Source: an uncultured Clostridia bacterium
GTDB lineage: Bacteria > Bacillota > Clostridia > Christensenellales > UBA1242
NCBI GenBank assembly: GCA_947168085.1
Contig: CAMVKM010000002.1
Location: 1-52,502, forward strand
Direction: 5' to 3'
Length of the DNA stretch: 52,502 bases
The notes below the pieces were generated by a model, which saw nothing but the letters and a program-made list of their open reading frames with translations, made no database searches and was not told the DNA's origin. The first letter of the stretch is position 1, and the number at the start of each line of letters is the position of its first letter. This document shows positions 14,704 through 52,502 of the stretch, piece after piece. A program made the position numbers and the translations under genes.

Positions 14704-16245
14704 TTACATTGAAAGTGTGTCGTCCAAAACTTGAGACACAGCATCAACTGCATCATCTGCAACTGAATCAAGAACTTCTGAAACTTTTGGTTTTGATGCT
14801 TTTGTTTCTTGAATGTGATTTAAAATGTCTTCAAAAGTGCTGTCTGCGTCCATGTCTTGTGCCTTGTCATCAACAAGCATGTTTGTAACAAGCAAATCCA
14901 TGTCAAAGTCGTCAGCTGACAAACTTTCAAAGTACTCTTGTTGCAAAGCTTTAATTGCTTGGTTGTAATCATCAACTGTTGCAAAATACTCTCTAAAATT
15001 TGAGTCTGATTCATTATAAAGTTTTTCAAATTCGCTCAACTGCTCATCGGTTGCCAAAGATTTAAATTTGTCAATAAAAACATTAACTTGTTCCTGAGCA
15101 GTAAATGAATTTGCTAAAACATCATATTTGTGATCAAGAAGAAACTCATCTATTGAATATTTATGACCATTAAACACGAAATCTTCATAGGCAATGTCCC
15201 TATACTCTCTTCCAACAAACCCGCTATCACTAGGAACATAAAAAATGTTTTGCACATTAATCTCAATACCACGATCATGATAAGCTTTTGTTAAATTTGG
15301 AAAATTTTCAGTAAATTCATCAATAAATCTTGGTCCATCAGTCTCTTGAATACACTCACATTCTTGAAGTGTTTTCACACAAAAAGAAACAAGATTGTCA
15401 TCCAAATCTCGAACAAAGCCATTCACTCCACCACAAGTGCCTTTTTTGCCAGTAATATCGAATTCTGTGATGTTTGCACAATCTGTTGTAAGAAAATCTT
15501 CCAAATTTTGGTAAGATTCATCAATTTTTTCAATCAATGGTGCAAGTTTTTGGTTTGTTTTTGCCGCAAGTTCCTCAACTTGTTGTTGATAGGTTTTTGA
15601 AGAAAGCATTTCCACAACTTTTTCTTCAATTTCTGGCTTTCCTACATATTGTCCTGAAAGATTTGTTTCAATGATGTTTTCAATTTCATTTTCAGACATT
15701 TGTGGCTCATAAGGGTTGGTTACTGGAATCTCAAGTTTTTCGGGCAGAACAATTTCTGGAGCATCAGGAAGAGTCACATCTTTTTGCATTTGATTAAGTG
15801 CCACATAGGCACCAACTCCTGCAGCTGCAGCAACGCCAACACCCACAGCAGCCACTTTTGCTTTTGATTTGCCTTTTTTTAGGCTAGCTGGAGACACTGC
15901 TTCAAGTTTTTTGGATTCGTCCAAAAGTGTTTTTTCAAAATCAGCATAGGCGCTTGCTGGATTTGCCATTGAAGCAAACTCGGCTTCAACAGAATCTTTT
16001 CCAAATTTTTCTTCAATTTGTTTTGCATTTTTTTCACTTTCTTTTAGTTTTTGTGCTTTTGCATAAACTTTTGCACGGCTTTTGTCTCGTTGGTCCAAAA
16101 ACGCTTTGTAGGAAGCTTTGTCTTCAAAACCTTTTGATTCAAAATCTTCTAGTTTAGCTTCTCGTTCCTTTTCTACTTCTTTTAATGTTTTTTTAAATTT
16201 TCGTTGTTTTAACAATGGTTTTACAACCGGAATTGGATTTGGCAT
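14704..16245 (-). CDS. Bitopic membrane protein of unknown function: basic coiled N-terminal region, Gly/Ala-zipper TM helix, acidic ectodomain
   Basis: The track ORF starts at GTG 16251. ATG 16245 has AAGGAG 9 nt upstream. Residues 1-130 are K/E-rich. The TM helix is KVAAVGVGVAAAAGVGAYVAL (about 15796..15858). The roughly 360-aa C-terminal domain is strongly acidic with a 6-Cys cluster (TDCANI..GTCGG..SFCVKTLQECECIQ). I recognise no family. Confidence 0.7.
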   Translation of the reverse strand: MPNPIPVVKPLLKQRKFKKTLKEVEKEREAKLEDFESKGFEDKASYKAFLDQRDKSRAKVYAKAQKLKESEKNAKQIEEKFGKDSVEAEFASMANPASAYADFEKTLLDESKKLEAVSPASLKKGKSKAKVAAVGVGVAAAAGVGAYVALNQMQKDVTLPDAPEIVLPEKLEIPVTNPYEPQMSENEIENIIETNLSGQYVGKPEIEEKVVEMLSSKTYQQQVEELAAKTNQKLAPLIEKIDESYQNLEDFLTTDCANITEFDITGKKGTCGGVNGFVRDLDDNLVSFCVKTLQECECIQETDGPRFIDEFTENFPNLTKAYHDRGIEINVQNIFYVPSDSGFVGREYRDIAYEDFVFNGHKYSIDEFLLDHKYDVLANSFTAQEQVNVFIDKFKSLATDEQLSEFEKLYNESDSNFREYFATVDDYNQAIKALQQEYFESLSADDFDMDLLVTNMLVDDKAQDMDADSTFEDILNHIQETKASKPKVSEVLDSVADDAVDAVSQVLDDTLSM

Positions 16246-16309
16246 AAACACATTCTCCTTTTTTTATGTCTGGTAAATTGTATCACAAAACTTTAATTTT
16301 GTCAAGTTT

Positions 16310-19300
16310 TTAATTGTAATTAGAATATTTATAACCCAACAGTTTATATCGTTCAAAAAACTTGTGCCATTCTTCAATCAATTCATCTTTTTCTTCTTTA
16401 CTGATTTCTTGTTTTTGCGTTGTAGCGAAGTTTCCGTTTCTATCTTTCAAAAGTTTTCCAGAACCTTTACAAAGTGGGCAATCAATATGACCACTTCCAT
16501 CCACTTTGCCTTGCCACAAATCATCCCAAGCTCCGCCATGACCTCCACAACCAGAACAACCCACAGTGTCAATAACTGAGGATATTTTACCATTACCCCA
16601 ACATTCATCACAAACAACCTGGCCTTTTACAATAGCTGCCCCATTTTGACATATTTGCCCAATCCATTCACTGCACAGCATACAATCAATTTCCACATAA
16701 TCCTTAAGAATAGTTTTTGCCCAATTATTTTGAAGTATTTGAAAAACTGGACTAAAATTATGAGTATATAAAACACTTTTCATGGTTGGGTTTGCCGTTT
16801 TCATTGAACCATTACCCGTCTTGTCGTTTGTAACTAAACCTTTTGTTGCCAAATGTATTACTGAAGTGGATGCAGAACCATAATCTGTAATCGTTTCATA
16901 ATACCCTTGTTTTACTCCCTGATGTGAAGGGCCCGTTTCAACAAACACAGAATACTCATAATCGTAATCAACTGAAAGATTCCATGTTGATCGATATGGA
17001 TTACCATGCAAAATGTATTGTTGAGGAGTAACCGTCATGGACGCATCAAGTTCCATCCATCTTTGTGTTTTTGGACTGCTGCCTTGTTTTCCTGGAGTTA
17101 TTGAATATTTTTGAGTCAATGTACTGTTACATTCATAAGTTATGGTCCTAGATTCTTTCTCTTCACCATCTTCTCTTTTTAAATTATCAAAATCTATTTG
17201 CTCAGTTTGCTCTGGTTCTGTTGTTGAAATTGTTCCTGGATCTGGGCAAATTACCGTTCTTTGCAAACCATAAGTTTTAAAGAAAGCATTGTTGTTTTTG
17301 TCCCCAACTTCATCATCTGTCGCAAAAGGTGATGTTAAAGAAAATTTAAGCTTTTCAATTTTTGTTAACAAATTTTGTGTAACATCTACATTAGCTTTAA
17401 GATAAATGTAAGTTTTGCCAGTTTCCTTATCAAAAAACAAAAATCTTGTTACAACTGGATTGCTTGGATCATCTGAACTTATCTCTGTTGACGGACGAAT
17501 AGCCTGTCCAGAAACATCCTGGGCTTCAGCCCAATAAGTTGTGTTAGAATCGAGCACAATTTGTTGTTCACTGTCTGCATAGTTGTATGGATTTGTTATT
17601 GGAATTTTTACTCCTGCTATGTACTCATAATCAAAAGCATACAAATAAGGTGTTATGGTGTAAGTTTTTGTTAGTCCACCTTCTGAAACTCCTTTAATCT
17701 CCAATCCATTATCCTCAGGCTTTACTTCTACAGCCTCACTCCCATACACAAAGTAAGTGTCATCTTCATCATTTTCTGCATCAACACTATAATTGTCATC
17801 ACCTTGATTGTCTGGATTGTAAGCGTACACAACACTAGTGATTGGCTCTTCCTTATCATCTAAGAAGAACGCAATAACTCCACCAGCACCCAATGATTTT
17901 GGTTCATAATCGATGAAATCTTTTGGAACGATGTAATTTATCTTTTCACCTTCACCTTCGGTTTGAAGATCTGTTGTGTCTAGCGAAGGAAGAAACTCGT
18001 CAACACAATTAACATCAAATTGAGTTTCATAGAAATAACCAATTTCATAATCAGAATTTTTTGGAATTACACTTATCACAACAACATTACGACCAATTTG
18101 GAACTTTCCGTAGTTTACTCTTAGACCTTGTTCTGTGTTTGCCTCAGAAATAAGTGTGTAGTCAAACAAACCACCTGCCAATGCTTTGTAGGTGTTTGTT
18201 GTGGCTGTGTCTTTTTCACCCAAAGCCAAAAAGTTTGAAAGTCCAGTTATGGTGTCGTATTTTGATTTTGAATCTGAAATAACTCTAAGAATATCATCTT
18301 TTGACACATTGAGTGCATCAAGAGATGATGGATTGATTGTGTAGATTGCGCTTTGAGCCCTTTGAAGATTGATTGTGCTTTCACCAGAAATGATTTCTGA
18401 ATCTTGATAAGCAAAACCTTCAACTGGGTTGTCTTTGTAGGCAGTGTCATTAATTGTTTGTTGCCTTAGCGCAACTTTTACGCCCAAGTTGTTGTTGTAG
18501 GCAACTTTTGTTTCAACATTTGTGATTGCTTTTGTTACTGTGTTTCCAAAAGCGTTGTAGCGATAGTTTGTGTTTCCAACATCTGTTTTCGTTGCTGAAA
18601 TGCCTTCGTTGTTAAGACCTTGAATTATGATTTTGTCGTTTTCTTGAACAAGAGAAATGTCACCCTGTCCTGTTTCTCCCACTTTTGGATTGATGTAAAT
18701 TTTTCGGTATTCAACTGTTGCTGCAACACTCCAATCGCTGTCAAAAGCCCTTGGTTTGTTGTTTGAAGCGGTTTTTCCTGTAAGTTTGTAGAAAGCTGTG
18801 TAGACCCCACCTGGAGAATTTTGCAAAATGGCGTTGTAAAGATTTACAACATCATTACCGCTGAAAGAACCAGTTACTGTTGCATACCCAACTCTTGAAT
18901 TTGTGCTTTCTGGATATTCCGTTAAACTTCCTGAATAGATTTCAATTAAGGTTTGAGCCAAATTGTTGTCACCCAAACTATCAAATGTTTTTCCTGTGGT
19001 TGAATCAATGCTGAAACCTGCCAATTTTCTGTTGCCTGCCAAATCTGTTATGGTAATTGCATTTGCACTGTTTTCATAAACAGCAGCAAGTTTTGAAACA
19101 TCGATGTCCCTGTCTGCATTTAGCAATTTTTTGTTTTGATCAAAGCCATATGACAGCAAAACATTTTGATTGAAATTGTATTTTGCCGAAATGTCACGAA
19201 GGTGTGAAAGCTTTAACACAAAATCAAATTCGCTTGAAAGATCTTTGTGCCCAAACACCTTTTGGTCTTTGTTGTTTATTGTTATGGTGTAGTAAGGTTG

Positions 19301-22300
19301 AATTGCAAACTGCCATGTTGTGCATGTTGCCCAATCAAGATTGTTTTCAACATCTTTAAAGAGGAATTTTTTGCCTGAATGATCATTTGAACGCTCGATA
19401 ATATCAATGATGTTGTAGGTTTTTGTGTTTGATGAAACTGAACTATCATTCAACATGTAGATATGTGGATTTTCTTGTGTTTGATTTTTGTAATCAAAAA
19501 TTGTGAATTGATAATTTACATCATCAATGTTGCAATTTGCCAATTTGTCATATTTAAAACTCATGTTTATGCGGGCAGGTTTTAAAAGACCAGATGCTTT
19601 TCCTCCAACAATGGTTTCCTCTTCTGTCCACATGCCATCTTTTTCTGCTTCCATTTTTTCAACTGTGAATTCTTCGGTTGAAATGCGGTGATAGAATTTG
19701 AAGTTGCGCAACATTGATTGACTTGTTGTCCACAAACTTGATGCCTCTGCTGTTGGTTTTACTGTGATTTGAAAACTTATGTTAACACCATTTTTGTCAA
19801 TTAATCCTTTTTCCTTTAATGCGTTGTCGATTTGATTGTAGAAATTGTGGTTTGTTTCTTGATTTTGCGTGTTTTCTGAAATTGACGCATCTATACGATT
19901 TGTGTTTCCATAATTTTTTAATGCAATAGTTTCACCAAGTTGACCTGAACTTTGAATGGTGTTTTCAAGGAAAACTTTTACTTCAAAATCTAAGTGCAAA
20001 CCAAAACCATTTATGTTGGTGTAGCAAACACCATTGTTAGTATGAAATTCATCTCCTGCAGATTCAGCAGTGTAAAGATATAAATATGGGTCCATAACCA
20101 AAATTTGTTCCCTATATTCTCTAGACAATGTGTCATTTTTATAAGTTGTTAGGTTTGTAACATGATTGTCAACTCTCATCAAATCTTCAGTTGTTAAATA
20201 TGTGAACTTACCATTAATTTCTTTCTTTAATTCACCTGTGGTGTCTTCAATAGCCCCAGCAAAATCTAATTCAATTTTTCGAACATAGTTGTATTGTTCA
20301 CCATTTGAACCTTCTCTATCAATGTTAACACTTCTTGTTTCAACAAAAGACAATTGTTTTTTGATTAGAATTGTTTTAAATTTGTTTTGTTCTGGATTTG
20401 TTTGACTGCTGTGAGATTTTTTTGCTCCTGCAACATAACTTGCAACATAACCTTGATTTCCGTTTGAAACAAATGGCACATTATTTGTTGTAGTTACATT
20501 AAACAACATAACTCCATTGCCTTCTTGGTCGGTTGACACAAAAATGTCTTGAGCAATTGGTGTTTGATAGAATCCCCAAATATTGCGAATTACATTAAAC
20601 TTGTTACCGTTTCGATCAGAATAAAGTGCATTTAGTGTTGTACTTACTTCTCCACTTTGTTGTTGCTCGAGAACTATGTCTTGAACATAATCGGTTGTTG
20701 CCGGATTTCTTCCAACAACATCAACACAAAAAGCATCTCCCATTGTGCCCGTTTTGTGCCTGATGTACTGTGATGCTTCGTTTGTGCTGTAAACACCAAC
20801 AGTAAACGTGAAGTAGCCCGGAATAAATTTGTCGACAATCGCGTTGTAAATTGCGCTTTCTTGTTTTTGAGTGCTTAGATTTTCTGCTTTTGTTTCATAA
20901 TTAAGGAAATAAGTTTTATCTAAAACAATTGATGCTCGTTTCATAAAGTTGTGAATGTCCACTTGACAATCACTTAATGGAATGTCAAGACAAATGATTG
21001 AAGGTTCTGCCTCATCATCAAAGTAAAGTGAACTATTATTAAAATCTGCGCTATTAAGCAAGTTTAGACTAGTGTTTGTTGTGTCTCGAACAATGTAAAC
21101 CTTTAACATATCAGCAATGTCTGTTGCGCCATTAACAGGAGAGCTGATGTTTTCAACAGTTAGAGTGATTTTTATGTCTTTTACAATTTCACTTGATTGA
21201 TTTGGGTTTTCCTCAACATAATTAAACACATAAAAACCACTATTTGAATCGTCGATTGTGCCTTTGTCGCTTTCAACAACAACTTCGGAAATTTTTGGTG
21301 TTGCCATACGCACTCTATGAACAAAACTTGCTTCACCTTTTCCGTTTGATGACATTAAGTCTTGTCCGCCTTCAACAGGAATCAAAACCACTGTTCCAAC
21401 CACTTGGCCAACCACCATGCAAGTTCTGCTTACGTTGTAGGTTACTTCATTTAAGCCAGCGTTTGAACTAAACATCCAATTTAATGGAATTGCAACATTT
21501 GTAATTTCAACAGACCAAACTTGTGAGTCATTAGATGCTCCTGAAATGTAAGTGTTTGAAGTTACTCTTTTTAATATTTGTGGTTTTGTGTTAGAACCAT
21601 GTCCACGCAACAAAAGATTTTCGATTAACTCTGCACTGGAATCAGCGCTTGGATCTTTGTTGAAAACTTTTACTGCAACAACTTTGTATGGTGTTTGTTC
21701 TTCTGGTGTTTGCTCTATAACAATGCGGAAGAAAATGTCTTTGCTTACTGAATTTTGATTTGCAAGCATGGTTGAAACTTTTACAACAGCATAATATCTG
21801 TTTGTGCCAGCCGCATAATCAACATCTGTTGCATCTGTCAATTTTTGGAATGCTTCGGTTTTTAACGACAAGTAAAGGTTGTAGTAGTAATTATCCTTAA
21901 TTGTATCAAAATTGTCATCTTCAGAAACAAACATAAAGTGCTCTTCGTCACCAAAAGTATTTGCTTCTTTGCTTTTTGATGTGTAGGTTGAAATTCCAAC
22001 TATTGGTGCATCAAGACCATCAGGAATTAATGGCAAATCTTCTACATTTGTGTCACTGTCCAAAATGTAACCATCACCAAAATTGTTTGCAAAAACTTTA
22101 AAGCTTAATGTGTTGTAAATGAGTTCAAGCACACTTGGTGTGATGTGAAGTTTTCCGTTCCATGTTTCTGGGTCAAGGTTTTTAAGGTTAATTGTCATGC
22201 TGTAGGTGTTATTATTACGAACAACTGATGCCTCTGTTCCAACAACAGAAACCATTGCCGGTCCATGATTTTCCCCACTTTCTTCAGGCGAATACTTTGT

Positions 22301-25300
22301 TGTGTTCACAATTGAAAAATATGGTTCTTTTTCGCCTGGAATGTAAGTTTCTTCAATGTTTTTAAAGAAGGAACAATACCAATCAAATTTTAACTTGCTG
22401 TTTTTCAAATCTTTGAAGTCAAAACTGATATTTGTAACATTTTCAAATTTTAAGTAATGAAGCATTGCATTGGTTGTTGTTTTTGCTGTGCGCTCTGATG
22501 ACATATCAGCAACAGCATCACTTTTTGCACCATAAACACGGAAATAATGTTTGCCATAGTAATCTTTAAATTTTCCTGCAAGAATAGCTTTGTCTTCGTC
22601 CAAATCATCTGGAATTGGTCTAAACATAATTGAAACATCAATGTAAATGTAGCCATCAATTGGTTGAACACTTATTGGGTAAAAACTTTGATTTTCACCA
22701 TATTTTGAATTTGCTGTGGCAAATTCTTGTGAATGCCCTAAAATATAACTTGTTGGATACTGTCCATTAACATCTTCAACCTTAAATTTAATAAACACAT
22801 TGCGTTCATTTTCATTTTCTGCCCAAGCCTCTTTTAATGCATCTTTTGTTTCTTGAGAATCAGATTCATAAATCATTTTTGTGTTTTCAGATGTTGGGAA
22901 CAAACTGCTGTAATAGCCACTGCTGTCTGCGATGCTGTCCACAAGCATAATTTCAGTGATTTTCCATGGAGCCAAAATCAATTTTTTAGCGCTGTAAACA
23001 ATAGAATCCTCATACAAAACTGGATTTATTTGAGTGACTAATGAAATGGCAATGTAATACCAACCTGTTTTAAGTTCTTCACTGTCAAACCACTTGTCTT
23101 TTTCGACATTATCCCTGCTTTCAAGAAATTCTCGCATGTTAAATGAATATAAAAGTTTTTGTGTGTCTTGGTCAAGGTAAGACATGTTAAATGTCATATT
23201 GTAACCACCACTACTTTGATTACACCATGCAACTAACTCAGTTTGCCCAAAAACGCCGTAATTGCTTGGGTCAATATCTAGTTCTTTAAGTTGTTCAAAA
23301 GTTTTGTTTTCATCATAATCAGCAACATCAACACGAATAAGTTCAAATTTAAAAGTAACTTTTGAAGTACTGTTAATGCCATTGTTCCAAAGTCTTGTGT
23401 CTTGAGCATAATACTTATTAAATTTGTAGTTAAAGTCAACCTTGCCAGATGTGGTGTCCCAATTCATTCCTGGGTGATCATCCTCTGAAACAACACAATC
23501 AAGTTCTGTTTCCCAAACAAATTCATTGCTTGCAACATTAATTCCGCTTGTTGTTTGAATGTCTGTAATCAAAGGTGTGTCAATCCAGCCACTTTTGTTA
23601 ACAAAACGAGCGTCAGAAACTCTTAAAAACATTTCTATTGTGTTTGCATTGCTTGATGTGCTGTTGTCAGCCAAAAGAATGCTTCTTAAACTTATGCTTA
23701 AATTGTGTGTTGTTGCTGATTCCACATCCACAACTGAGATTGAACGTTCAATTCTTTGTTTGTTTACATAAATAATGAAATAATAACTGTCTGATTTGTT
23801 GCCTTTCATTCTTGTGTTGTCTGTGAATGACCAAGAAAGTTCTCCATAACTTGGACTTTGTCTGTTAGTGTTTAAAACAACTGAATTTATGTAAAGATTT
23901 CCAACCATGTCAAGAATGTCCCAGTATTCAAAATTACTTTCGTCCACATCAACAAGGTCTAATTGTGTTGCATAAACATCAAAGTAAACATAAGAATTGC
24001 CTAAACTTGATTCAGCAAACTCATCAAAAAATGGTTTTTCTTCAAAGTTTTCATTTGCTTGCATTACTATTGATTCAGGTTCTTCACCCCTTAACACATC
24101 AACAAAAGTTGTGTTAAAGTTGTAGGTGTCAACAATTTCATCTGTTGTGTAGATGTAATTAAGAGCATTGAACTCTAACACCATGTAACTAATGTTTGTT
24201 TTTGGATCAACTTTTGGCATAATGCTAAACAGTGAGTGAATGTGACCGGAAACATCAATTTTTGAAGTTTTTCTTGCAGCATCAACATCAACAAGTTCAT
24301 ACAAAATTTCAAAAATGTCATCATTGTCTGGATCAACATAACTAACTTTTACATAAGCATCAAATGTGTTTGTGCTGTCCTTTAATGCATCTACACTTTT
24401 AAATGAAATTTGATAGTGCAACATTGTGTCTAAAATTGGGTCTAGCAAAATTGTGTAGAGTTTTGTTCCTGTTACATAACCAGAAATGTCATCATCAACA
24501 CCATTTCCATCATAGTCAAACCATGTGTAACCCAACTTGTCGCGAGTTTCATAAATGTAACCATCATTTATGTCATCAGTTTTTTGCAAAACTGTTGAGT
24601 GAATTGTTTTGATGTAGTGTTTGTAAGTGATTGCATGAGTTTCGTTAAGGTCACTGTTTAAAACAAACTCACTTAAATCAGCAAGTGTCGAAAGCCATTT
24701 TGTTTTAAATGTGTAATTTCCATAATTCATGTCTGCAATGTGTTTTAACATCATTTGATAAACAGAAACATTTGCAACAACATTTCCATTGCCATCGTCT
24801 TGAGTTTCTGCTCTTTCTTTCCAAACAACATCACCATTTTCATCAATGCAGTAAATTTCATAAATTACGCCAATTTCACTAATGCCATGTTCAATCAAAA
24901 GATCAGTTAATGTGTCAAAACCATCAGTTGTTCTAATTTCCGTTGCAGGTCTATCTTCATCAATTGTTGTCATGTGACGATTGTAAATTGTTATGGTGCT
25001 TTGTGCTCCACCAAAATCATAATCAAACAAATCACTGTTTGCATAGTAAACTCCATCACCTTTTGCAACAATTTTTAAGGTGTAAACACCTGGAGTGAGT
25101 TCATTTGTTGTGTTTGATTTGTTTCCTGTTAAGGTAAGTTTTTTAACTAAAGAGCCTTGTTTGTAGAAGTATACTTCATATCCCATAATTTCATCAGGTT
25201 CTTCAGCTTCCGAAAGTCCTCTTGTTACTGCTTTTGCGTTAAAATATCCACTTAACAAATGTTCGTTTAAAATTGCAATATAGCTTTGGTCATAAATTGG

Positions 25301-43300: not shown

Positions 43301-46300
43301 GCATTTCCCCAATAAACATTAAACATAAACGTAAGCCCAAGATCTTCACCATTAACGTTGTCATACTCCGAAGTTCCTTCATCTGGAATGATTACATAAG
43401 GATGGAAAACTTCATACCTTTTTGGAGTTTTGTTAGAAACTTTGTATAAAGTTGACACAACGCCATCAACTTTTGTCATTTCATACTCATCTAAGATGTT
43501 ACTTTCACCATCAAGCAATCCACCAAAGAAAAATTCTTTCATTCTGGATCCAGTTCCATTTTCAACCCATGAAAGTTGTTTTTTGAACACCACAACAAAA
43601 GCGCGATTATCATTTCTAAAGTTTCCTGTTTGCTTGTTTGGCTCGGTTTTTGAAAAAGACAAATAAGAAGAAAGTTTGTATTTTTCTTGACCAATGAAAG
43701 CCCTTGTTTCTCCAGTTTTTACTTGAGTTGTAAGCATGTCGTTTGGCTGAGAAAAATCAGTTGATGCGTAAATATCTTGACCTATTGGTTTTGAGTAGAA
43801 TCCCCAAATGTTCATTTGTGTTGTTGCACGTTTACATTCGTCAAGTGTTGTTGCTTTTAGATCAACACTTTCAAGCATAATGTCTTGAAGGAATGAATGA
43901 TTTGCTGTTGAACCCGGATAAATGTTTTCGGTTTTAAAATCAACAACTTTGTTGTTTTGATAAGATGTGTGAACGAGATACTCTGTTAACTCTCTTGAAT
44001 CAAACACTCGAGCAGCAAAAGTAAGTTTGTGTGGAACAAATGTGTCAATAAATAGCTTGTAAAGGCTTTTTCCATTTATGTTTTGAATACCCAAAGCATT
44101 TTGATAAATATTTAAACTTCTCTGATCCAAAACCATGGTGATTGTTTTCATGCTTGAGTAGTCGTCTTCGTCAACAAAAATCCAGTTTCCTTTAAATGCA
44201 TTAAAAGTTGTTTTTATGATAATTACTGAAGGGTCCACTCCGCCGTCACGAATAGTTGTTGCATCAAACCTGTTACTGTCTCTTAAAATGTCTACATCCC
44301 CTTTAATAAGATAAAGAGCAATTGAATCAGCACGTTTATCAACATTTGTTATAGTGATTGTCATTTTTGTGTCAGTAATAATATTCCCACGATCTTCAAC
44401 ATACTTAAGGACTGGACTGTCACCTTCATATTCAATAATTGGATCAGTTTGCCTGTTGTAGTTACCTTCAAACACAACTTCGTTAATAATTGGTACAGCA
44501 AAGCGAACATGATGATAGAACAAAAGTGTTGCGACATTGTTTGCTGCCGTGATTTGCTCTAATGTGTCTGGATCTTCAATAACAAGTTCTTTGCTTAAAA
44601 TTTTTCCACGAAGAAAGTAAGAACCTTCCACATTGTAGTAAATTGATTTGTCATTATCTTCACTGTAAACATCGAAAATCCACCCAAGTTTTATTGGAAT
44701 TGCACTAAATTCAATTGTTGTGTAGGATGTTTTCTTGACATTGCTTGCTGTTTCTGTGTTTTTGACATAATATTCATTAGTTTTCTTTGCGTAAACATAA
44801 TTAGCACTTGATGATGAACCAATGTTTGAGTACTCGGCAAGCACATTTCCGAAAACTTCGGAGTAATTGTCACTGCCCGTTTCATCAATTCTTACGTAAT
44901 TATCAAAGATTGTTATGTGATAGTAGTTTCCACCATCCCAATCTATTTTTATGTAGAATGGAGCATGAATGTTGTTTGTATCTGTTGCTGCCGATTGAAT
45001 CATAACCATTGCATAGCGCCAACCAGAAGCAAAAGGATTTGGACCAAGTATAAAGCCTTCAGTTCTAAGTGACAAATAAAGGTTGTGATAAACATTGTTT
45101 TTTGCAATGTCAAAATTATCATCTGCCGACACATAGTAGTAATTTTCTTGGCTTTGTTGGTTAGCTTTTATGGTTGAATAAGCTGTTGAAATTCCAAGCA
45201 TTGGCGCTTCAAGACCTTTTGCAAACACTTTTTGATAATTTGAAATGTTTGAGTCAAGCACAAATTCACTAAAGTTGTTTGACAAAACTTGGAAACTTAG
45301 GTTGTTTATGATTAAGTAAACAACACTTGGAGTGATGCACAAGACGTTGCTATCTTCTTCCAAATCAAACTTGTAGCTAAAATTGTAGTCAAAACCAGAC
45401 TCATTCATAAAAATACGTTTTTGATTTTCTGGAAGCACAATTGGGAAATCAATTTCTCCAGCAAATGTTTCTGGCTGCGATGCTGTTTGCAATTTGTTGA
45501 TGATATCAATCTTAGGCATGTTTAAAATTGGTGTTTCACTGTTTTTAAACACTGTTTTGTAGAACAAACAATTCCAAGAAAAACTTAATTCAAATATTTT
45601 TCCTTCTTGTTTAAGTTTTATGCTTGACTGATCTATTGGACTAAATTTAATGTAGTGAAGCATTGCATATTGATTTTGTTTTGATGTTTTGTTGCTGGAT
45701 TCTTCTGCAACTTCATCAACTTTGTTTCCATAAACTCTAAAGTAATGTGGACCATAAGCAAATCTGTAGATTTCAGCATATGGGTCATTTTCATCACAAA
45801 TATCTTTTGGCCAAAACATGGATGAAATGTCAATATAAATAAAACCATCAGCAAGTGGCGTGTTGCTTATTGGAACAAAAGTGTTTCCAACTTTTGACAT
45901 GTCTGCAGCAAGTGTTGGATCATAAAAGGCTTCGCCAGTTTTTGAATGTTTTATCGTGTAAGTATCTGGATAAGTTAAGGTGCCGCCCTGCAAACTTGGC
46001 ACAGCTTCAACCTTAAATTTAATATAAACTCTACGTTTGCTTTCATTTTCAGCCCACGCTGTTTTATGTTCATCTTTGTATGACTCAGGATCATTTTCAT
46101 GAATCATAGGTGTATCACTTTGATAAGGATAAAGTTCTTGATAAGCTGGATCATCAATTTTGTCAACGATAGAAACAGAGTTATCTATAATGATCCAAGG
46201 GGCAACAATAAGTTTGTGTGATTCAAATAAAACAGAATCTTTGTAAAGTGGGTTTTCTGGATGTTGTTTGTTGTAATCAGTTACAAGTGACAGAACAAGG

Positions 46301-49300
46301 AAATAACCACCCGAAATAAGTTCATCACTCTTAAACCATTTGTCATATTCATAAGTTTTCAAAATTGAGTTTAAATTAAAACTATAATTTGCAACAATGG
46401 TATTTCCATTCTCTGTGGTTTTTGTTGTTCCTTCTTCATCATACAAGAACATATCAAAACTCATTTTGTATGTTAAATCATGGTCTTCCAAATCAAGCCA
46501 ATCTTCTATTTGTTGTTGAGTAAATTTGCTGTAAACATAACTTCCTTCAGGAATTTCTGTTGTTCCAAGCTGATCTTCCATGTCTCTAAGACTTGTGTCG
46601 CGATATTTATTGAAAATATTGTAGTCAACACGCAAAACTTCAAGCATAAATTCAACACCTGGATTTTCACCATTAACTTGTCCATCAGTCCAAAGTCTGT
46701 CATCGTAAGAATAGTATTTGTTGAATTTGTTAGATAATTGCACTTCACCAGCAACTGAATCATCAGTGTCCGCTGTCGCCCAATTTGAACCATTTCCAAG
46801 TTTTCCACCACGAATAATTTCAGTCTCCCAAATAAAGTTTGGATCAGACATCAAAATATTGTGTGTTCTGTCATAAATTTCTGTGTAAAGTGGCAAATCA
46901 AGCCAACCATCAATAGTAGCGTAAATGCCTATGGTGTTACTGTTGTCTTCAAGGCTGTTGTCTGCCCACAAAACCTCATACAAACTTTGATGGAATGGTT
47001 TTAAAGGATTTTCACCCGGCTCAAGAGTATACTGTTGTGTGATCTTCAAATCATTTACTAAAATCACAAAAGTAACATCACGGCTTTGTCTTGTGTTGTT
47101 ACTAAAAGTCCAACTAAAGTCACCATAATTGTTTTCGTCAGTTTTGTCGTTGTTAAGACCAACATTTTGGATGTAAAGGTCAGCATAAGCTGCTCCCCAA
47201 TCTTTCCAAAATCTAAATGTTGTCTCTTTTGTGTCAAACATGTCTTGAAGTGTTGCATATGTGTCAATGTAGTTATATGCATTCAAGTCACTAGATGTTT
47301 TAAAGAACGAAACAGAACTAACTCCTGCTTGTGTTTTTATGGATTCACCACCACGAATAAGATCACGGAAACTTGAATTATAATGATAAACATCAACAAT
47401 TTCTGCTGTTGAATAAATGTAGTAAAGGTCATTAAAGTCAAGAATTGTTCGAATTATTCCATGGTCATTTACTTCTTTAAGTTCAAAAATTGTTTCTGTT
47501 CCAAAAAGTTTTTGTGTAAGTTCGTTAAGCTGGTAATGAACAGTGTAAATCCCATCTTCATCATCATCAACATAGGTAACATCAACAAAAGCACTAAATG
47601 TCGTAACTTCTCCTGCTGATGTTTCCATTGACACGTCATACTGAATTGTTAAGTTTAATGTTGGATCTAACACTATTGTGTAGAAGTTTGACGAATCAAG
47701 ATATCCACCCATTTCTTCAATACTCTTGTCAAACCATTCATAACCATGGTTGCTTCGTGTTTCCAAAATGTAACTGCCATTTTCTTGCAAAATTAAATCA
47801 GCATGAACTGTTCCAATGTGATGGCAATAAGAAATTGCTTTTGTTTCATTTAAATCACTGTTTAAAATAAAGTTGTTTAGGTCTTCTTCACTTGAAATCC
47901 ACTTTGTTTTGAAGAAAAAGTTTGCATAACTCATAAGAGTAATGTTTTTAAGAACGAAGTTAAACACAGACACAGTAGGCTCAACTTGTCCTAAAGCATT
48001 TTGTTTTGTTCTTGCTTGTTCTTTCCACAAAAATTGTCCATCAGCATCAAAACACCAAACTTCAAAAAGCGCATCAATTTCACTAATTCCATGTTGAATT
48101 TTTAAATCATAAAGTGTGTTGTAATCGTCAGTTCTGTATTCAACAGCTTCAAGTGAAACATTGCCAATCATGTGTCTTTGATAAATTGTGAGTTTTTCAA
48201 TATTTTTAAGACCAAATGTGTAATCAAAAAGATTTGTGTCACTGTAGTAAACGTGGTCACCAACAGCAACAAGTTTTAAATAATAAAGCCCTGGAGAAAG
48301 ATCAAAACTTTGTGTTTGAAGATCTAAAAGACTCAATTTTAAAACTCTAATATTAGCAAACACCGCTTCAGAAACTAGGCATGTTGGCATCTCGGTTTGC
48401 AATGCTGTTGAAAGGGCTGTGTTAACATCAATGTTTTCTTCTTCCGTTAATCCAACAGCGTTTTGATACTCAATTTGAACTTTGTTTGCATCAACTTGAA
48501 CAAATCTGGCAACTTTAAGTTCAATATCAAATCTTTCATTAATATGTGCAAACGCCCTGTTAACCGCACTTTCAATCATTTCAGCTGTAATAGTAGAATT
48601 TGATGAAGAAATTTCAATCAAACTTCCATCTTGATAAAAATAAATATCAAATGACTCAACACCAACTGGTTTATCAACACTTCTTCTAACTGTTTTTATG
48701 TTGAAAATGTAACTATCAAGATGAGCATTAACAATCTCCAGCAAACTTTGGTCTTCAACATAAATTGGTTCACCATAAGTGCTGTGAGTCTCATCATTTG
48801 GTGTGTGGTCAGCGTATTGAACATAGCTGTCCACAACAACATCAACATATTCAATACTTGCATCCAAAACTAGTTGTCTGTTGTTAATAAATTCATGTTC
48901 AACAGTGTCACCAATTCGCTTGTAAGAATTTGCACCAACAGGAACAACTGTTATGTAAAACTTGTAGTCCCCAGCCGGAATGGCTTCAAGAAATTCTGTA
49001 AGATTTAAAGAAATTTGAGTGTTTTGTGCACCTTCGATGTAGAAATTCTCACCGGCGCCATTGTAAATGTAGTAAACTGGAGCAACTCTAGTTGTTGATA
49101 TACCTGCTTTTAAGTAATAAATGCTTGTAACATCGCCCAAAACAGCATCATGAAAAATCATTTCTTCGCCATCAAAATTCTTAACTTGAATTTGAAATGC
49201 TGAACTTGAAAAGTCATCATTTTGCGCTTTAAATTTTAAAGTTTTGCTTCTTTCACTGCCCAGCAAAGTGTAATCTTCTTCAAAAACATAATTTGGATCA

Positions 49301-52300
49301 AAAACTGTTCCTGCTTTTTCATAAATCATCAAGTCAACACGGCTTTCACCAAAACCCTCATAACCTTCGCCTGGTTGAGTTTGTCCACCTTGTTGTCCAC
49401 CAAAAGGATTGTGTGTTGAAATGATGTTTTTTGCTTTATCAGAAGCAACAACTCCCCAAAGACTGTAAATGCCCTTTTCAATAAATGGAACAACACTTCC
49501 ACCTTCATCTTTTGTTAGTGATTGAAGTTTGTTTATCCACTCTGTTATGTTCGCGCTATAAGAAATTGAATTTTCATCACCTAAAAGATTTATTTGAATT
49601 GGTGTTTCAAATTCATCCACACTAACGCTTCCCAAAACAGAAGTTGTGTTGTCCCCATTAAATGTTGGAACTGTTATGGTAATTTGATCGTAAGGATAAC
49701 ATGTTTGCAATCCCCCCATTCCATCATCAACAACATAACACCACTTGCCTTCGCCATCAAGAACAAAACTGTTAGACACAACAAAGTAGTCACTTAAAAC
49801 AAAGTCATATTTTGTTGCCACATTTTTGTCATCATTTGCCTTTGTCGCTTTCCAAGTAAGTGTGTAATCTGTTAAATCTTCACTTATGGACAAATTTAAC
49901 CAAACTGTTCTAGAAATTTCAAGCGGAAGATTAACTTCACGATAAATGGTTCCACCCCTAAAGATTGTGTGAACTTTTTCTAATTCATCAGTAACATAAA
50001 AATCTGAAACAACCATTGTAATAATACAATCACGAACAACTGATGTTAACTGAGATTCAAGATTTAATCGAGTTTTTCCAGCTTCAGTTTGAAAATCACT
50101 GTCTTGCGATATTGCATTATAAACAAGAGTTGCATAACCTTCTCGGTCTAAGTAAACCGTGTAAAGAAGATTTTTTGAGTGGTTTGAAAGCAAAACTTCT
50201 GAAACGTCATTAAATGGATCATCCCAAACAAGGAAGTAAGTTCCATCTAAGTCAATTGTCATGTCAAAATAAGGCAAATCAACTCCACCCACATAAAATG
50301 TGTCGTAGACAACCGCTGAAAAACCAACAATTTCAGTGTTTGATTTCGAATAAACCAAAGCACCATAAATTTTCGTGTAGTCACTGGCATCAAAATTTTG
50401 AATTACAAACGAATTTTCTGTTGTTGTAAACCAAAAATCCATGTCTGACACACTGTCATAAAGATCAGCGTAATCTTCAAAATTTTCATTGTAAAATGGA
50501 TAATTTTCTGATTCACTTGTGTAAGAAAAGTAAAGTTTGTTCAATCTTTGTTCAAGATAAACATCTTCCATAACTCCACCGGTTGTTTTATCATAACGGT
50601 AAAGTTTTACCGTGTTTTGTTCTATGTCCCACTCATAGTAAACATAACCATATGAAGAACCTTCAACAGCATCCCAAGTAATTGTTCCATCAGAAAGCAT
50701 TTTAAGGTTTGTTGGTGCTGGCGTTCTTAATGATGTTATGATTGTGTAAGATTTTGCTTCTGACTCAGTTTTAAACACAAAACTTTCTGGCATTGGGTTT
50801 GAAATCATTTCTTGATAAGCATCTGTTGGGTTTGGATACTTGTCAAGTTTTATCACATGTTCAAAATCAGTTGATTGTGTTGCATCAAAACTTGCTGCTG
50901 TTACTGAAAATTCAAAGTTGTAATCAAATGTTTGCCATGTAATGACGCCCCCAAGGCCTCTTGGATCAAAGCCATTTATGTAACCAATTGGAATTTTGTA
51001 CTTAAACAAAATTGATGATTCGGTTTCTTCATAATTGTAGTAATATGATGAATCTTGATTTATGCCAAGTTCAAAATTAGTTGTTTGTGGCACAAAATTT
51101 GCTTCATCACTTTTTGTTGAAATAGTTAAATTAAAACCTTTAAAGTTGTCTGTAATCAAACTTTTTAATGTTAAAATGCTTACCAAAACTGGAGTTGTTG
51201 AACCAATTTCACCTGGAGTAACAACAACACTTTCAACAGGGTCAAGAGTGCTGGCATAGTAAACATAAATTGGGTTAGACCAACCACTTTCAGTTGCTAT
51301 GGAAGTCTCTTGGAATTTTATGGTAATTTCATAAATGCCCTGCTTGCTCTCAAAAAGTTCTTTTGTATCAATAAAATAACCATAAAACTCTAAGGTTCTT
51401 GAAACTCTCATAACATTTATGTCTTTAATTTCTTTGTCTATGACTGTGTTTCCATAAACATTTGAAATTGAAACAGTTATTTTGGCGTTTGTTTTTGAGT
51501 TGTCATAATTGCTGTTTGCTGTTTGTTCAATGTAAACAAGATTTTGTTTTGTTGCCAATTCATCACTTGTAATGTAAGCTTTTAAAAGTGCGTCATTATC
51601 TTCCTTAAAACCAATTCGTGGAGCACGAATGCTGATTGACTTTGGTTTAAAGCCACGAGCTGTAGGAGCAGAATCTTTAAAATGTTTAGCATCATTTCCA
51701 AGCACAACAAGTTCCAAACGATAGCTGCTTCCAGAAATCATTCCTGTCATGCCATAGTATTTGAAAGTGTAAGTGTCAGTTTTTTCTTCTAGTGTTGCAA
51801 TCAAACTTGTTTCTGTTGTCGAAACTTGTTCTAAAACAGTCCAAATTCCATCAATCAAAACAAATTCGCGTTCCATAGAATCAACAAATGTAAATCCATT
51901 GTCTGTTGCCTTTATTGCAAAAGTTATCATAATTGAAGTGCTTGCAACATTAAACAAACTTAATTTGTAACCACCAGCATCAACTGCTTCAATTTGGCCA
52001 TCTTCTGTTCTGTTTTTTCCTTGAATTTTGGCAAAAGTTGCATTAAGTGTTGGCACTGTTTGTCCATCTTGTTGACTGCCCGTAAAACCATCAACAAAAT
52101 CAATTCTTGAACTATCAAAAATTTGGCTTACTTCGTAAACAATTTCTGCACTTCTTTCACTTGAAACACACGTTCCATCTTCTTGAATCCATGATGTGTT
52201 GCTTGCAACAACAAAAATTCTGTAATTTCCATTGCTTACATTGCCAGCATTTAAGTAGTCACTTAAATTTGTGCTTAATGTTATGGTGTTGTTTGAAAAT

Positions 52301-52502
52301 GTTAAATTTGTTCCTTCAGTTTCACCTGTTTGTGTGTTAAAACCACCAAGTAGTTTGATGTTTGGCTCAAATTCTTCTGTTTCATAATCATAATAAGCAT
52401 AAACAGCATAAAAGTTTGCAAAATCATCTTTTGTTATTTCAATTCTTGAACCCTGGCTTGTTACAACTGGTTTTCTGATAACTGGATAGTATTCAAACAA
52501 CG
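40351..52502 (-). CDS. Giant surface protein, collinear paralogue of giant B (giant A). It is partial, with the 5' end beyond the right edge and at least 4,049 aa in the window.
   Basis: The reading frame is open to the window edge. The track's M1 is a TTG at the edge, not a real start. Its first residues FEYYPVIRKPVVTSQGSRIEI align with residue about 1175 of giant B (FEYLPILDAPVVTLNGTQLQI). Collinear matches continue to the C-terminus, for example NIWGFYSKPIGQDIYASTD vs NIWGFYQTPIAQDIFVSTD and ILKLSHLRNITTTYTF vs VLKLSHLRDISAKYNF. It ends with four CxxCxGxG repeats. Confidence 0.9.
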   Translation of the reverse strand, partial: LFEYYPVIRKPVVTSQGSRIEITKDDFANFYAVYAYYDYETEEFEPNIKLLGGFNTQTGETEGTNLTFSNNTITLSTNLSDYLNAGNVSNGNYRIFVVASNTSWIQEDGTCVSSERSAEIVYEVSQIFDSSRIDFVDGFTGSQQDGQTVPTLNATFAKIQGKNRTEDGQIEAVDAGGYKLSLFNVASTSIMITFAIKATDNGFTFVDSMEREFVLIDGIWTVLEQVSTTETSLIATLEEKTDTYTFKYYGMTGMISGSSYRLELVVLGNDAKHFKDSAPTARGFKPKSISIRAPRIGFKEDNDALLKAYITSDELATKQNLVYIEQTANSNYDNSKTNAKITVSISNVYGNTVIDKEIKDINVMRVSRTLEFYGYFIDTKELFESKQGIYEITIKFQETSIATESGWSNPIYVYYASTLDPVESVVVTPGEIGSTTPVLVSILTLKSLITDNFKGFNLTISTKSDEANFVPQTTNFELGINQDSSYYYNYEETESSILFKYKIPIGYINGFDPRGLGGVITWQTFDYNFEFSVTAASFDATQSTDFEHVIKLDKYPNPTDAYQEMISNPMPESFVFKTESEAKSYTIITSLRTPAPTNLKMLSDGTITWDAVEGSSYGYVYYEWDIEQNTVKLYRYDKTTGGVMEDVYLEQRLNKLYFSYTSESENYPFYNENFEDYADLYDSVSDMDFWFTTTENSFVIQNFDASDYTKIYGALVYSKSNTEIVGFSAVVYDTFYVGGVDLPYFDMTIDLDGTYFLVWDDPFNDVSEVLLSNHSKNLLYTVYLDREGYATLVYNAISQDSDFQTEAGKTRLNLESQLTSVVRDCIITMVVSDFYVTDELEKVHTIFRGGTIYREVNLPLEISRTVWLNLSISEDLTDYTLTWKATKANDDKNVATKYDFVLSDYFVVSNSFVLDGEGKWCYVVDDGMGGLQTCYPYDQITITVPTFNGDNTTSVLGSVSVDEFETPIQINLLGDENSISYSANITEWINKLQSLTKDEGGSVVPFIEKGIYSLWGVVASDKAKNIISTHNPFGGQQGGQTQPGEGYEGFGESRVDLMIYEKAGTVFDPNYVFEEDYTLLGSERSKTLKFKAQNDDFSSSAFQIQVKNFDGEEMIFHDAVLGDVTSIYYLKAGISTTRVAPVYYIYNGAGENFYIEGAQNTQISLNLTEFLEAIPAGDYKFYITVVPVGANSYKRIGDTVEHEFINNRQLVLDASIEYVDVVVDSYVQYADHTPNDETHSTYGEPIYVEDQSLLEIVNAHLDSYIFNIKTVRRSVDKPVGVESFDIYFYQDGSLIEISSSNSTITAEMIESAVNRAFAHINERFDIELKVARFVQVDANKVQIEYQNAVGLTEEENIDVNTALSTALQTEMPTCLVSEAVFANIRVLKLSLLDLQTQSFDLSPGLYYLKLVAVGDHVYYSDTNLFDYTFGLKNIEKLTIYQRHMIGNVSLEAVEYRTDDYNTLYDLKIQHGISEIDALFEVWCFDADGQFLWKEQARTKQNALGQVEPTVSVFNFVLKNITLMSYANFFFKTKWISSEEDLNNFILNSDLNETKAISYCHHIGTVHADLILQENGSYILETRSNHGYEWFDKSIEEMGGYLDSSNFYTIVLDPTLNLTIQYDVSMETSAGEVTTFSAFVDVTYVDDDEDGIYTVHYQLNELTQKLFGTETIFELKEVNDHGIIRTILDFNDLYYIYSTAEIVDVYHYNSSFRDLIRGGESIKTQAGVSSVSFFKTSSDLNAYNYIDTYATLQDMFDTKETTFRFWKDWGAAYADLYIQNVGLNNDKTDENNYGDFSWTFSNNTRQSRDVTFVILVNDLKITQQYTLEPGENPLKPFHQSLYEVLWADNSLEDNSNTIGIYATIDGWLDLPLYTEIYDRTHNILMSDPNFIWETEIIRGGKLGNGSNWATADTDDSVAGEVQLSNKFNKYYSYDDRLWTDGQVNGENPGVEFMLEVLRVDYNIFNKYRDTSLRDMEDQLGTTEIPEGSYVYSKFTQQQIEDWLDLEDHDLTYKMSFDMFLYDEEGTTKTTENGNTIVANYSFNLNSILKTYEYDKWFKSDELISGGYFLVLSLVTDYNKQHPENPLYKDSVLFESHKLIVAPWIIIDNSVSIVDKIDDPAYQELYPYQSDTPMIHENDPESYKDEHKTAWAENESKRRVYIKFKVEAVPSLQGGTLTYPDTYTIKHSKTGEAFYDPTLAADMSKVGNTFVPISNTPLADGFIYIDISSMFWPKDICDENDPYAEIYRFAYGPHYFRVYGNKVDEVAEESSNKTSKQNQYAMLHYIKFSPIDQSSIKLKQEGKIFELSFSWNCLFYKTVFKNSETPILNMPKIDIINKLQTASQPETFAGEIDFPIVLPENQKRIFMNESGFDYNFSYKFDLEEDSNVLCITPSVVYLIINNLSFQVLSNNFSEFVLDSNISNYQKVFAKGLEAPMLGISTAYSTIKANQQSQENYYYVSADDNFDIAKNNVYHNLYLSLRTEGFILGPNPFASGWRYAMVMIQSAATDTNNIHAPFYIKIDWDGGNYYHITIFDNYVRIDETGSDNYSEVFGNVLAEYSNIGSSSSANYVYAKKTNEYYVKNTETASNVKKTSYTTIEFSAIPIKLGWIFDVYSEDNDKSIYYNVEGSYFLRGKILSKELVIEDPDTLEQITAANNVATLLFYHHVRFAVPIINEVVFEGNYNRQTDPIIEYEGDSPVLKYVEDRGNIITDTKMTITITNVDKRADSIALYLIKGDVDILRDSNRFDATTIRDGGVDPSVIIIKTTFNAFKGNWIFVDEDDYSSMKTITMVLDQRSLNIYQNALGIQNINGKSLYKLFIDTFVPHKLTFAARVFDSRELTEYLVHTSYQNNKVVDFKTENIYPGSTANHSFLQDIMLESVDLKATTLDECKRATTQMNIWGFYSKPIGQDIYASTDFSQPNDMLTTQVKTGETRAFIGQEKYKLSSYLSFSKTEPNKQTGNFRNDNRAFVVVFKKQLSWVENGTGSRMKEFFFGGLLDGESNILDEYEMTKVDGVVSTLYKVSNKTPKRYEVFHPYVIIPDEGTSEYDNVNGEDLGLTFMFNVYWGNALMFSQDLTNIENNSVKRVDSNEPENGRSPKNHDFYGQIYNYFLREGTSLAPGALLRFEVVVSLKEQGSIWTDSQMRSRELMFYCRTTTSEVVVDEMDKDADIWANEETQDSPSSNNTGLLKPNFIPLRYTYDFIENLKINPTHYKIDVYEDNGTFRESFEFDLENRSSESYVNLAKQIESCYNNGNGSTKFMFDVDGKNWATHTSWVFSVQPFYDITLNGQASRIYGHEEWVGSPFDLILKLSHLRNITTTYTFDHSYANNMVNANEITDNSPERHAAAYGNVNSSAIKVGEISGLTGKNADISDDYVSNWTIKVVDVGEKTINGKFNAKDLIIALNNICQNSPGGVYKVKYRLSNTYMTFMSDWSASYNFTYRKIYTNAKNDFTLEQNGTSITFASQNNDDMSAKYNTHSESYNAFGKGTKYNNNLITTLFLQQQSLNSSINSNGDNPVEEFKEKEMQGVKTRSYTIDPTTWDALMVTAHDAKGKEASMASKLVDGGIFREAAIGKFQLGTNHILIKVESQVPEYEIGYYYTFTFDVDYVDSFTPTVSGAPNVETESMKTNGKVLFGFDEEDDVGTVNYSVDEKTGKISNIAETKGTASAGDNPSSIRIEATIYYRDREYIKNVNYSTTPTYNFNKKFELKGQASGSYEDACEVVHDSGIIYNFLDRPITDETSILEMLFGKQLQLRINDDGFNITVNTEKSNKITKFSQLHLTIYSVFANTALSNPNDPQNRKLIPNDGILEFDLSDADIGSQSGIETGSASNSVSYRGRTNVNASTLSGSMNISGSAGDAEYVHNKTATFNFSGSGSGSASLYETKTGTRSDGSTYTYEVSHGSISWSKSGSSSKTISGPGSISETVWTESKSTGYSMRNATSSSSSECTWSASVEVETGRWAKDLAYKYVKNMDVCPDCGGTGEIKCPKCDGNGYTSGGWFDLTHYGCENCGGSGGGLHIGADPYVRGKGIIECPKCKGTGHVESKEE
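40375..40572 (-). other. Canonical four-repeat DnaJ-type zinc-finger module at the C-terminus of giant A
   Basis: CPDCGGTG, CPKCDGNG, CENCGGSG and CPKCKGTG all match CxxCxGxG. Only 7 residues (HVESKEE) follow before the stop. A Ser/Gly/Thr-rich low-complexity stretch precedes the module. Confidence 0.8.

Follow-up and report, generated by a model that had tools for sequence, protein, structure and literature searches.

A rare, hypervariable cassette for putative giant surface proteins in uncultured Clostridia

Do giant proteins encoded side by side in an uncultured clostridial genome belong to one surface structure, or are their genes neighbours by chance? The question is raised by a stretch of 52,502 nucleotides (nt), here called the window (contig CAMVKM010000002.1 of assembly GCA_947168085.1, positions 1–52,502, forward strand), to which all coordinates refer unless another locus is named. 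On its minus strand lie three very large open reading frames (ORFs), encoding two giants (A and B) and a lipoprotein, and a shorter gene for a bitopic membrane protein. The reading preferred here, with a probability of about one half, is that these genes represent a lineage-specific, chromosomally fixed cassette that may encode co-functioning, membrane-tethered surface fibrils under diversifying selection. The initial annotation went further and proposed that these proteins may be co-expressed parts of one large extracellular structure; physical assembly into a single apparatus is conjecture. The genes, with protein lengths in amino acids (aa), and the transcription signals are listed by position.

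14650..14668, no strand assigned: bidirectional intrinsic terminator, CAAGAG-loop-CTCTTG with adjoining A and T runs, which ends the cassette ahead of aspS
14704..16245, minus strand: third gene, encoding a bitopic membrane protein of 513 aa (ORF 14704..16251, true start ATG at 16245)
16277..16305, minus strand: promoter of the third gene, TTGACA-17 nt-(TG)-TACAAT, from sequence and conservation in relatives
16310..32413, minus strand: giant B, 5,367 aa, a surface protein anchored in the membrane by its N-terminus, from the ORF table, homologues and hydropathy
32442..39701, minus strand: lipoprotein B, 2,419 aa, with a lipobox, a Big_2 domain, 16 FN3-like modules and a GLUG-like repeat head
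39702..40350, minus strand: spacer between two cassettes, 649 nt, 19.6% GC
39798..39826, minus strand: TTGCTT-17 nt-TATAAT, candidate promoter for the lipoprotein and giant B, within sequence that is conserved ahead of the lipoprotein genes in two related loci (L001 and L002)
40182..40213, minus strand: intrinsic terminator after giant A, a 14-bp stem and a T-run
40351..52502 (codons to 52500), minus strand: giant A, 4,049 aa or more as it runs off the window, last in order in a second cassette that lies upstream

Gene order and duplication

The ORF table reproduces exactly the four ORFs of the initial annotation, with gaps of 28 nt between the lipoprotein gene and giant B, 64 nt between giant B and the third gene, and 649 nt between giant A and the lipoprotein gene. 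The last of these is the AT-rich spacer that had been put at about 650 nt. The start codon of the third gene is preceded by AAGGAG at a spacing of eight nt. Chance origin of the long ORFs is excluded: at a per-codon stop probability of ~0.073 in sequence of 34% GC, 5,367 stop-free codons have a log10 P of about -177, and homologues of 4,320–5,508 aa are present in independent assemblies.

Related loci in other assemblies, named L001, L002, L003, L005, L007, L008, L009 and L010, indicate that the genes are linked and not adjacent at random. Synteny was read from L001, L003, L005, L007, L008, L009 and L010. In 7 of the 7 related loci covering the junction, the lipoprotein gene is followed by the giant gene after 20–45 nt. 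A homologue of the third gene lies beside the giant, and aspS comes next, in all five of those with adequate 3’ flank. Three loci reach far enough to show ABC-F, cysS and a SLOG-family gene beyond aspS, and the gene order is kept down to 70% AspRS identity. The homologues of the third gene (L001, L003, L005, L007 and L008) encode 500–650 aa; the one in L008 is on the opposite strand yet homologous (hhalign 95.5%, E 1.5e-8).

The pair has also been duplicated. Giant A aa 1–3702 is collinear with giant B aa 1174–4945 at 32–35% identity, and the two are paralogues; giant A lacks the first ~1,170 aa because the contig ends. Giant A is orthologous to the giants of L002 (53%) and L009 (51%). The L002 giant has its own upstream lipoprotein, 38% identical to that of the window. 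The metagenome-assembled genome (MAG) CAVEAP01 has the same order as the window – a giant A orthologue, a spacer of ~900 nt, a lipoprotein B orthologue and a giant B orthologue. From the L002 lipoprotein and the CAVEAP01 layout it follows that the window holds two tandem paralogous cassettes, with lipoprotein A beyond its right end. The earlier description of giant A as a unit of its own therefore gives way, as its orthologues in L002 and L009 belong to a second lipoprotein-giant cassette. No end overlap was found between L001 and L002, which come from the same sample, so the adjacency of the two cassettes is taken solely from the window and L009. In the more distant L003 and L010 only one cassette is present, and it comes immediately after spo0A. 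Each full cassette costs these uncultured low-GC Clostridia ~25 kb, and the two tandem copies take up more than 38 kb of the window.

Functional coupling of the lipoprotein and the giant is well supported by the synteny, the spacing, the retention of both genes after duplication and the co-divergence described below.

The initial annotation had joined the lipoprotein, giant B and the third gene in one transcription unit of ~25 kb. Both terminators were located where it placed them, and the lipoprotein and giant B, behind one promoter, are very probably on one transcript. The third gene fits this unit less well. Its near-consensus promoter is preserved nearly base for base in L001 and L005, where the flanking coding DNA is only 65–75% identical, and its equivalent in L003 reads TTGACT-17-TAAAAT. 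Because the third gene has this promoter of its own and is inverted in L008, one 25-kb transcript is not the whole story. Going by the predicted promoter, the third gene can be transcribed alone; read-through from giant B could also occur, since no terminator separates the two.

The spacer between the cassettes (39702..40350) consists mostly of A-runs interrupted by short GT-containing words (AAAAAAGTGTTAAAAA type). The words recur upstream of the orthologous lipoprotein genes in L001 and L002, and may represent curved DNA or regulator binding sites. In L003, a tRNA-like sequence (GCTTCCGTAGCTCAGATGGATAGAGCAGTGCCCTCCTAAGGCA...GGTTCGAATC...GCCA-like) at ~3020–3110, in the stretch that separates spo0A from the lipoprotein gene, immediately precedes the lipoprotein promoter; the window yielded no tRNA.

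Divergence and distribution

The cassette genes diverge far more than the genes beside them, as four comparisons show.

L001 and L005: AspRS 100% identical in amino acids and flank 96.9% identical in nucleotides over 2.6 kb; giant 54%, third protein 60%
L001 and L009 (same MAG as L005): flank as for L001 and L005; lipoprotein 72%
L002 and L009: giant A orthologues 61%
Window and L001: AspRS and ABC-F 94%; lipoprotein 54%, giant 41%, third protein 39%

The cassette is hypervariable, since flanks that are ~97% identical in L001 and L005 adjoin giants that are only 54% identical. Between these two loci the identity switches in the intergenic region before aspS, a sharp boundary, and the three cassette genes diverge together. 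Along the giants, identity falls from 63–78% near the membrane anchor to 29–39% at the C-terminus. Exposed surface structures that undergo diversifying selection or allelic exchange typically show such a pattern, and the cassette would be under strong diversifying selection or allelic replacement that acts most strongly at the membrane-distal C-terminus. The contrast between flank and giant marks the locus as a probable target of pressure from phage, host or competitors, and the cassette is a potential marker for strain typing.

The cassette family is extremely rare in public data. An exhaustive HMMER search with giant B aa 1464–2662 against 1.84 billion cluster representatives found five proteins including the query (4,320–5,367 aa), each the sole member of its cluster and known from one contig. 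Screening 185,579 species-representative genomes added four loci in three MAGs, labelled by NCBI as ‘[Ruminococcus] torques’ (CAVEAP01), ‘Christensenella sp. UBA7584’ and ‘uncultured Clostridia bacterium’ from reindeer. All collections combined hold about ten loci, all from uncultured Clostridia. Among 5.8 billion clusters, a k-mer-limited search found four lipoprotein clusters including the window’s own, and no relative of the 513-aa protein besides the window copy. This k-mer-indexed search missed giant B itself when given a 2,000-aa fragment, though the protein is present, so rarity judged from it alone may be unreliable; very long proteins are possibly handled differently by the index. No relative was found in JGI metagenome contigs or IMG/VR viral contigs.

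The fetched loci have ~33–38% GC. Genes for spo0A, a sigma factor, SpoIIT and Coat_F lie near related loci, and the hosts are for that reason taken to be endospore-forming Clostridia. A prophage or other mobile element was considered as the origin of the cassette and judged unlikely, given the lack of an IMG/VR relative and a site among housekeeping genes (phage and plasmid BLAST and the PHROGs and PADLOC libraries were not used). No literature was found on the sample and assembly accessions or on giant proteins in Christensenellales.

Domain content of the encoded proteins

Hydropathy and motif scans bear out the three different membrane tethers described earlier for the lipoprotein, the giant and the 513-aa protein. 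The features within the large proteins are these.

16457..16684, minus strand: Cys-rich tail of giant B, aa 5244–5319, three CxxCxGxG motifs and a degenerate CxxC pair, by motif scan
17564..28531, minus strand: core of giant B, aa ~1295–4950 (~3,600 aa), with no Pfam or PDB relative
28532..29188, minus strand: two further FN3-like modules of giant B, aa 1076–1294, by module profile and hhalign
30272..32188, minus strand: six tandem FN3-like modules of giant B, aa 76–714, by module profile and hhalign
32270..32326, minus strand: signal-anchor transmembrane helix of giant B, aa 30–48, by hydropathy; it follows a Lys/Arg-rich tail
32712..34130, minus strand: C-terminal head of the lipoprotein, aa ~1858–2330, GGIVG...NC.N.G repeats of GLUG type
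34503..39302, minus strand: 16 contiguous FN3-like modules of the lipoprotein, aa 134–1733, by module profile
39342..39596, minus strand: Big_2 Ig-like domain of the lipoprotein, aa ~36–120, by family profile against PDB 7quz
40375..40572, minus strand: tail of giant A, aa 3977–4042, four CxxCxGxG motifs, by motif scan

The signal-anchor helix is kept in all full-length homologues of the giant, and the lipobox of the lipoprotein (FVAC with Cys30) is kept in its orthologues. No family in Pfam or NCBIfam scored above cutoff for any of the four proteins, and a motif scan found no LPXTG, HEXXH or GGxGxD (RTX) motif in any of them. BLAST detected neither internal repeats nor similarity between the lipoprotein and the giants.

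Profile-profile comparison ties the lipoprotein to the first quarter of giant B, in agreement with the proposal that both carry the same FN3-like module type: hhalign aligns the N-terminal quarter of the giant with the lipoprotein at 98% probability (E 2.5e-13), and a module profile finds 16 and 8 copies in the two proteins. The same quarter also matches the start of the giant’s shared core (96.5%), and hhalign found no link between it and the later core. The profile, an iterated hidden Markov model (HMM), was seeded on one lipoprotein module with relaxed thresholds and converged on an 84-aa consensus; a strict-threshold run recovered orthologous copies only, and the relaxed run was paired with shuffled control sequences, in which the HMM had 0 matches. 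The consensus, PTNLKISNGELSWDKVENAT.SYEVYV...AGTYSVSVKALG...S.YSESV, carries the classic FN3-like pattern W / Y.V / G.Y.V.V.A / S..S. The modules are ~85–100 aa long, with a conserved Trp in strand B, a conserved Tyr in strand C and the F/G-strand signature G.Y.v.V.A...S..S. Evidence from known folds is fainter: Pfam fn3 has no match in the cassette proteins, the family profile reaches FN3 chains in PDB only weakly (E 0.11–0.29), and the models behind the Foldseek matches to FN3/MG-domain arrays are of low confidence.

Each of the four full-length lipoproteins (window, L001, L002 and L003) has exactly 16 modules. In the giants, an insert of 360 aa of unknown type separates the block of six modules from the block of two, and there are isolated module matches besides. 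An idea that the lipoprotein and the giant have matched stalk lengths was dropped, the recognisable modules numbering 16 and 8.

The N-terminal Big_2 domain was the sole useful match among the PDB sequence searches, with the lipoprotein family profile aa 26–120 matching the Big_2 domain of 7quz at E 6.3e-7. Pfam Big_2 (PF02368) is found in four of seven members at E<=0.01 (best 7e-5), the window copy scoring 19.6 bits against a cutoff of 22.8. The C-terminal head is the most conserved part of the lipoprotein. It aligns by hhalign with a GLUG-repeat protein encoded at the left end of the window (90%, E 1.5e-6); Pfam Glug (PF07581) has no match in the window lipoprotein C-terminus and matches one of seven members (E 8e-4). 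An AlphaFold2 model of lipoprotein aa 1400–2419, built from 4 sequences, has a predicted local distance difference test (pLDDT) score of 39.9, too poor for fold assignment; Foldseek returned no match to it at E<=0.001, leaving a beta-helix fold unconfirmed.

The core shared by the two giants was earlier described as lacking known catalytic or adhesin motifs, and the Pfam, NCBIfam and PDB profile searches and the motif scan uphold this. It is rich in invariant Tyr, Trp, Phe and Gly. No PDB match was found for it by single-sequence or family-profile searches, and Pfam, applied to two core tiles (A5 and A6) in all nine members, gave scattered single weak matches only. An AlphaFold2 model of giant B aa 2290–3480 from 6 sequences is mostly beta, and its pLDDT of 50.6 is too low for a fold to be assigned; Foldseek paired it with generic multi-beta-sandwich proteins (C3/C5, alpha-2-macroglobulin, cytokine receptors) at TM <0.15. 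This is weak fold evidence that the core may be made of chains of beta-sandwich domains. With ~3,600 aa per giant and no Pfam or PDB relative, the core may represent a large tract of new fold space.

The CxxCxGxG tail is present in five of nine family members and missing in the other four. All five tail-bearing members have weak Pfam matches to DnaJ_CXXCXGXG, Anti-TRAP and BSD2 (best E 2.7e-4), with the DnaJ central zinc finger PF00684 at 15.6 bits against a gathering cutoff of 32.7. The motifs, within ~70 aa at the giant C-terminus, resemble those of DnaJ-type CXXCXGXG zinc fingers, but the tail of the giant would lie outside the cytoplasm, where the surface protein ends, and is not universal in the family. 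The C-termini of the L001 (~22248–23588) and L005 (~13228–14481) giants have a hydrophobic Gly/Ala-rich segment of ~45 aa, for example GGGALSAATIATLGSGGTLIVPAAIFTAVSTAAGAGAGAI. It sits between two Cys-motif pairs (alignment A7, columns 440–500), is absent from the window giants and could insert into a membrane.

The 513-aa protein has a Lys/Glu-rich N-terminal stretch of 130 aa that is probably cytoplasmic, a Gly/Ala-rich transmembrane helix (aa 133–151) and an acidic ectodomain of ~360 aa, with 5 Cys. Pfam searches of its family gave scattered single weak matches and no known family. The distant homologues in L003 (23844–25718) and L007 (19829–21790) have a second transmembrane helix close to the C-terminus, with a Lys/Glu-rich tail after it; they also have an N-terminal motif in duplicate (E..L..W.EKGF.S...Y..FL) and a ~100-aa insert in the ectodomain.

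Possible functions and known systems

If the cassette does encode co-functioning fibrils, the FN3-like arrays would be stalks, bringing the distal parts across the wall and out past it. The head of the lipoprotein and the distal core of the giant might jointly bind an external ligand – a host glycan, a fibre, another cell or a phage – and the third protein might be an assembly or anchoring partner at the membrane. Several points weigh against this reading. No adhesin ligand-binding domain was recognised in the cassette proteins; the models of the core and the head are of low confidence (pLDDT 50.6 and 39.9), and the core could hide an enzymatic or toxin domain. Physical interaction among the three proteins is conjectural, and the link of the third gene is looser because of its own promoter and variable orientation. 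The hosts are classified by MAG labels only, and L001 and L005 are treated as the same species on 2.6 kb of flank only. A stricter form of the reading makes the lipoprotein, the giant and the bitopic protein stoichiometric parts of one membrane-rooted surface organelle, in which the GLUG-like head docks on the giant and the third protein is the base. This is quite doubtful; such an organelle could be an attachment or cell-contact structure of a small lineage of gut Clostridia, built on core folds not yet seen, and its hypervariable alleles would then define strain-specific recognition types. Were the obligate pairing to reflect a physical complex, it would be an unusual Gram-positive route to a long appendage without sortase or wall-binding domains.

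Four rival explanations were ranked, from independent adhesins through a polymorphic toxin-like system and an S-layer-like coat to a role at the spore surface. It is rather unlikely that the proteins are independent giant adhesins, adjacent only through duplication and module shuffling and sharing no joint structure. The FN3-like modules in common would then show shared ancestry of parts, the separate promoter and inversion of the third gene would fit, and clusters of independent giant surface genes exist elsewhere, such as Giant1-5 of Apilactobacillus kunkeei (PMC12863079). Yet the lipoprotein and the giant are never split in the loci covering the junction, where their spacing always stays within the same narrow range, and both were kept after tandem duplication and diverge in step. 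Improbable, too, is a contact-dependent polymorphic toxin, in which the giant would be a stalk with a variable C-terminal effector and the membrane protein a cognate immunity or receptor-blocking factor. The giant C-terminus is the most divergent part (29–39% against 63–78%), C-terminal modules are swapped, the Cys-rich tail being one that comes and goes, and the downstream gene co-varies and has a strong promoter of its own. Immunity genes often have their own promoter. Against such a toxin, Pfam found no toxin domain in 9 C-terminal regions (no search was made of PADLOC or toxin libraries, and a novel toxin fold could have escaped notice), divergence extends to the entire cassette with its lipoprotein and not only to a C-terminal tip behind a conserved demarcation motif, and the third protein, at 500–650 aa with a large ectodomain, is unlike typical small cytoplasmic immunity proteins.

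The hypervariable alleles, the sharp boundary and the fixed chromosomal site recall the slpA cassette of Clostridioides difficile, and the weak Foldseek matches include an S-layer protein (7ptp). An S-layer-like or envelope-scaffold cassette is still poorly favoured: the 7ptp match has TM <0.15 on a low-confidence model, Pfam found no SLH, CWB2 or other wall-binding domain in the cassette proteins and orthologues scanned, which are instead anchored in the membrane, and proteins of 270–600 kDa are far above known lattice formers in size. A part in sporulation, as envelope proteins of the forespore or spore surface, is very improbable. It would suit the position of the single cassettes of L003 and L010 directly downstream of spo0A and the sigma-factor, SpoIIT and Coat_F genes nearby, but the spo0A adjacency is simple synteny, seen in L003 and L010 and not shown for the window, and other neighbours (aspS, cysS) are housekeeping genes. 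Both conserved promoters look like sigma-A (TTGACA/TATAAT) and not sigma-E, F, G or K, which is a weak argument against sporulation-specific expression.

Among known systems the closest published analogue of the cassette is the A. kunkeei Giant1-5 cluster, consecutive genes for extracellular proteins of 3,000–8,000 aa, also in Bacillota (PMC12863079). Both systems largely lack known domains, have neighbouring giants that co-diverge and are limited in phyletic range; the elongated predicted shapes of the A. kunkeei giants, which include arrays of beta-sheet domains, are a further likeness. The A. kunkeei proteins are made with cleaved Sec signal peptides; they have beta-solenoids at the N-terminus, long internal repeats, many of them alpha-helical, and wall-binding domains of DUF5776/SH3b-like type at the C-terminus (PMC12863079). 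The window proteins are instead tethered by a lipid anchor and a signal-anchor helix, with no BLAST-detectable core repeats and no DUF5776; their giants have obligate lipoprotein and bitopic partners, and there is no sequence similarity between the two systems.

Ebh/Embp, SasC and the serine-rich repeat proteins (SRRPs) are likewise surface proteins of great length in Bacillota, beta-rich and stalk-like, that consist in part of tandem Ig/FN3-like modules and have a presumed role in adhesion. Such proteins have an LPXTG/sortase wall anchor or a C-terminal transmembrane helix and are highly repetitive. Unlike these, the cassette proteins lack LPXTG and are anchored N-terminally. A sorting signal of the MSCRAMM type was not found, there being no LP.TG or NP[QK]TN anywhere in them and hydrophobic helices only at the N-terminus. 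SRRPs require an AST signal targeting the accessory Sec pathway, whereas the cassette proteins have 8.6–10.5% Ser and no Ser-rich repeats. No GG.G.D motif of the RTX or type I secreted adhesins (LapA, SiiE, MpIBP) was found, and the hosts are Bacillota by MAG label. With its Big_2 start and GGIVG...NC.N.G repeat end, the lipoprotein resembles the GLUG/Big_2 surface proteins of Firmicutes (PF07581, PF02368), from which it differs in falling below the Pfam cutoffs, in its 16-module FN3-like stalk and in its obligate pairing with a giant. What notably sets the cassette apart from known giant surface proteins is the non-repetitive core without known relatives, the obligate lipoprotein partner and the hypervariability; its function is proposed from sequence and gene context.

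Two other genes of the window lie outside the cassettes. A further surface-protein gene (2..3172, minus strand, at least 1,057 aa) leaves the window at its left end; its product is the GLUG-repeat protein aligned above with the lipoprotein head, with a signal-anchor helix, ~20 GGIVG...NCYN.G GLUG repeats (Pfam Glug 25.5 bits, above cutoff) and Ig-like repeats C-terminally. The SLOG-family (LDcluster4) gene, at 8819..9478 on the minus strand, lies between cysS and a gene for an MGDG-synthase-like glycosyltransferase, and is kept at the same place in L001 and L003.

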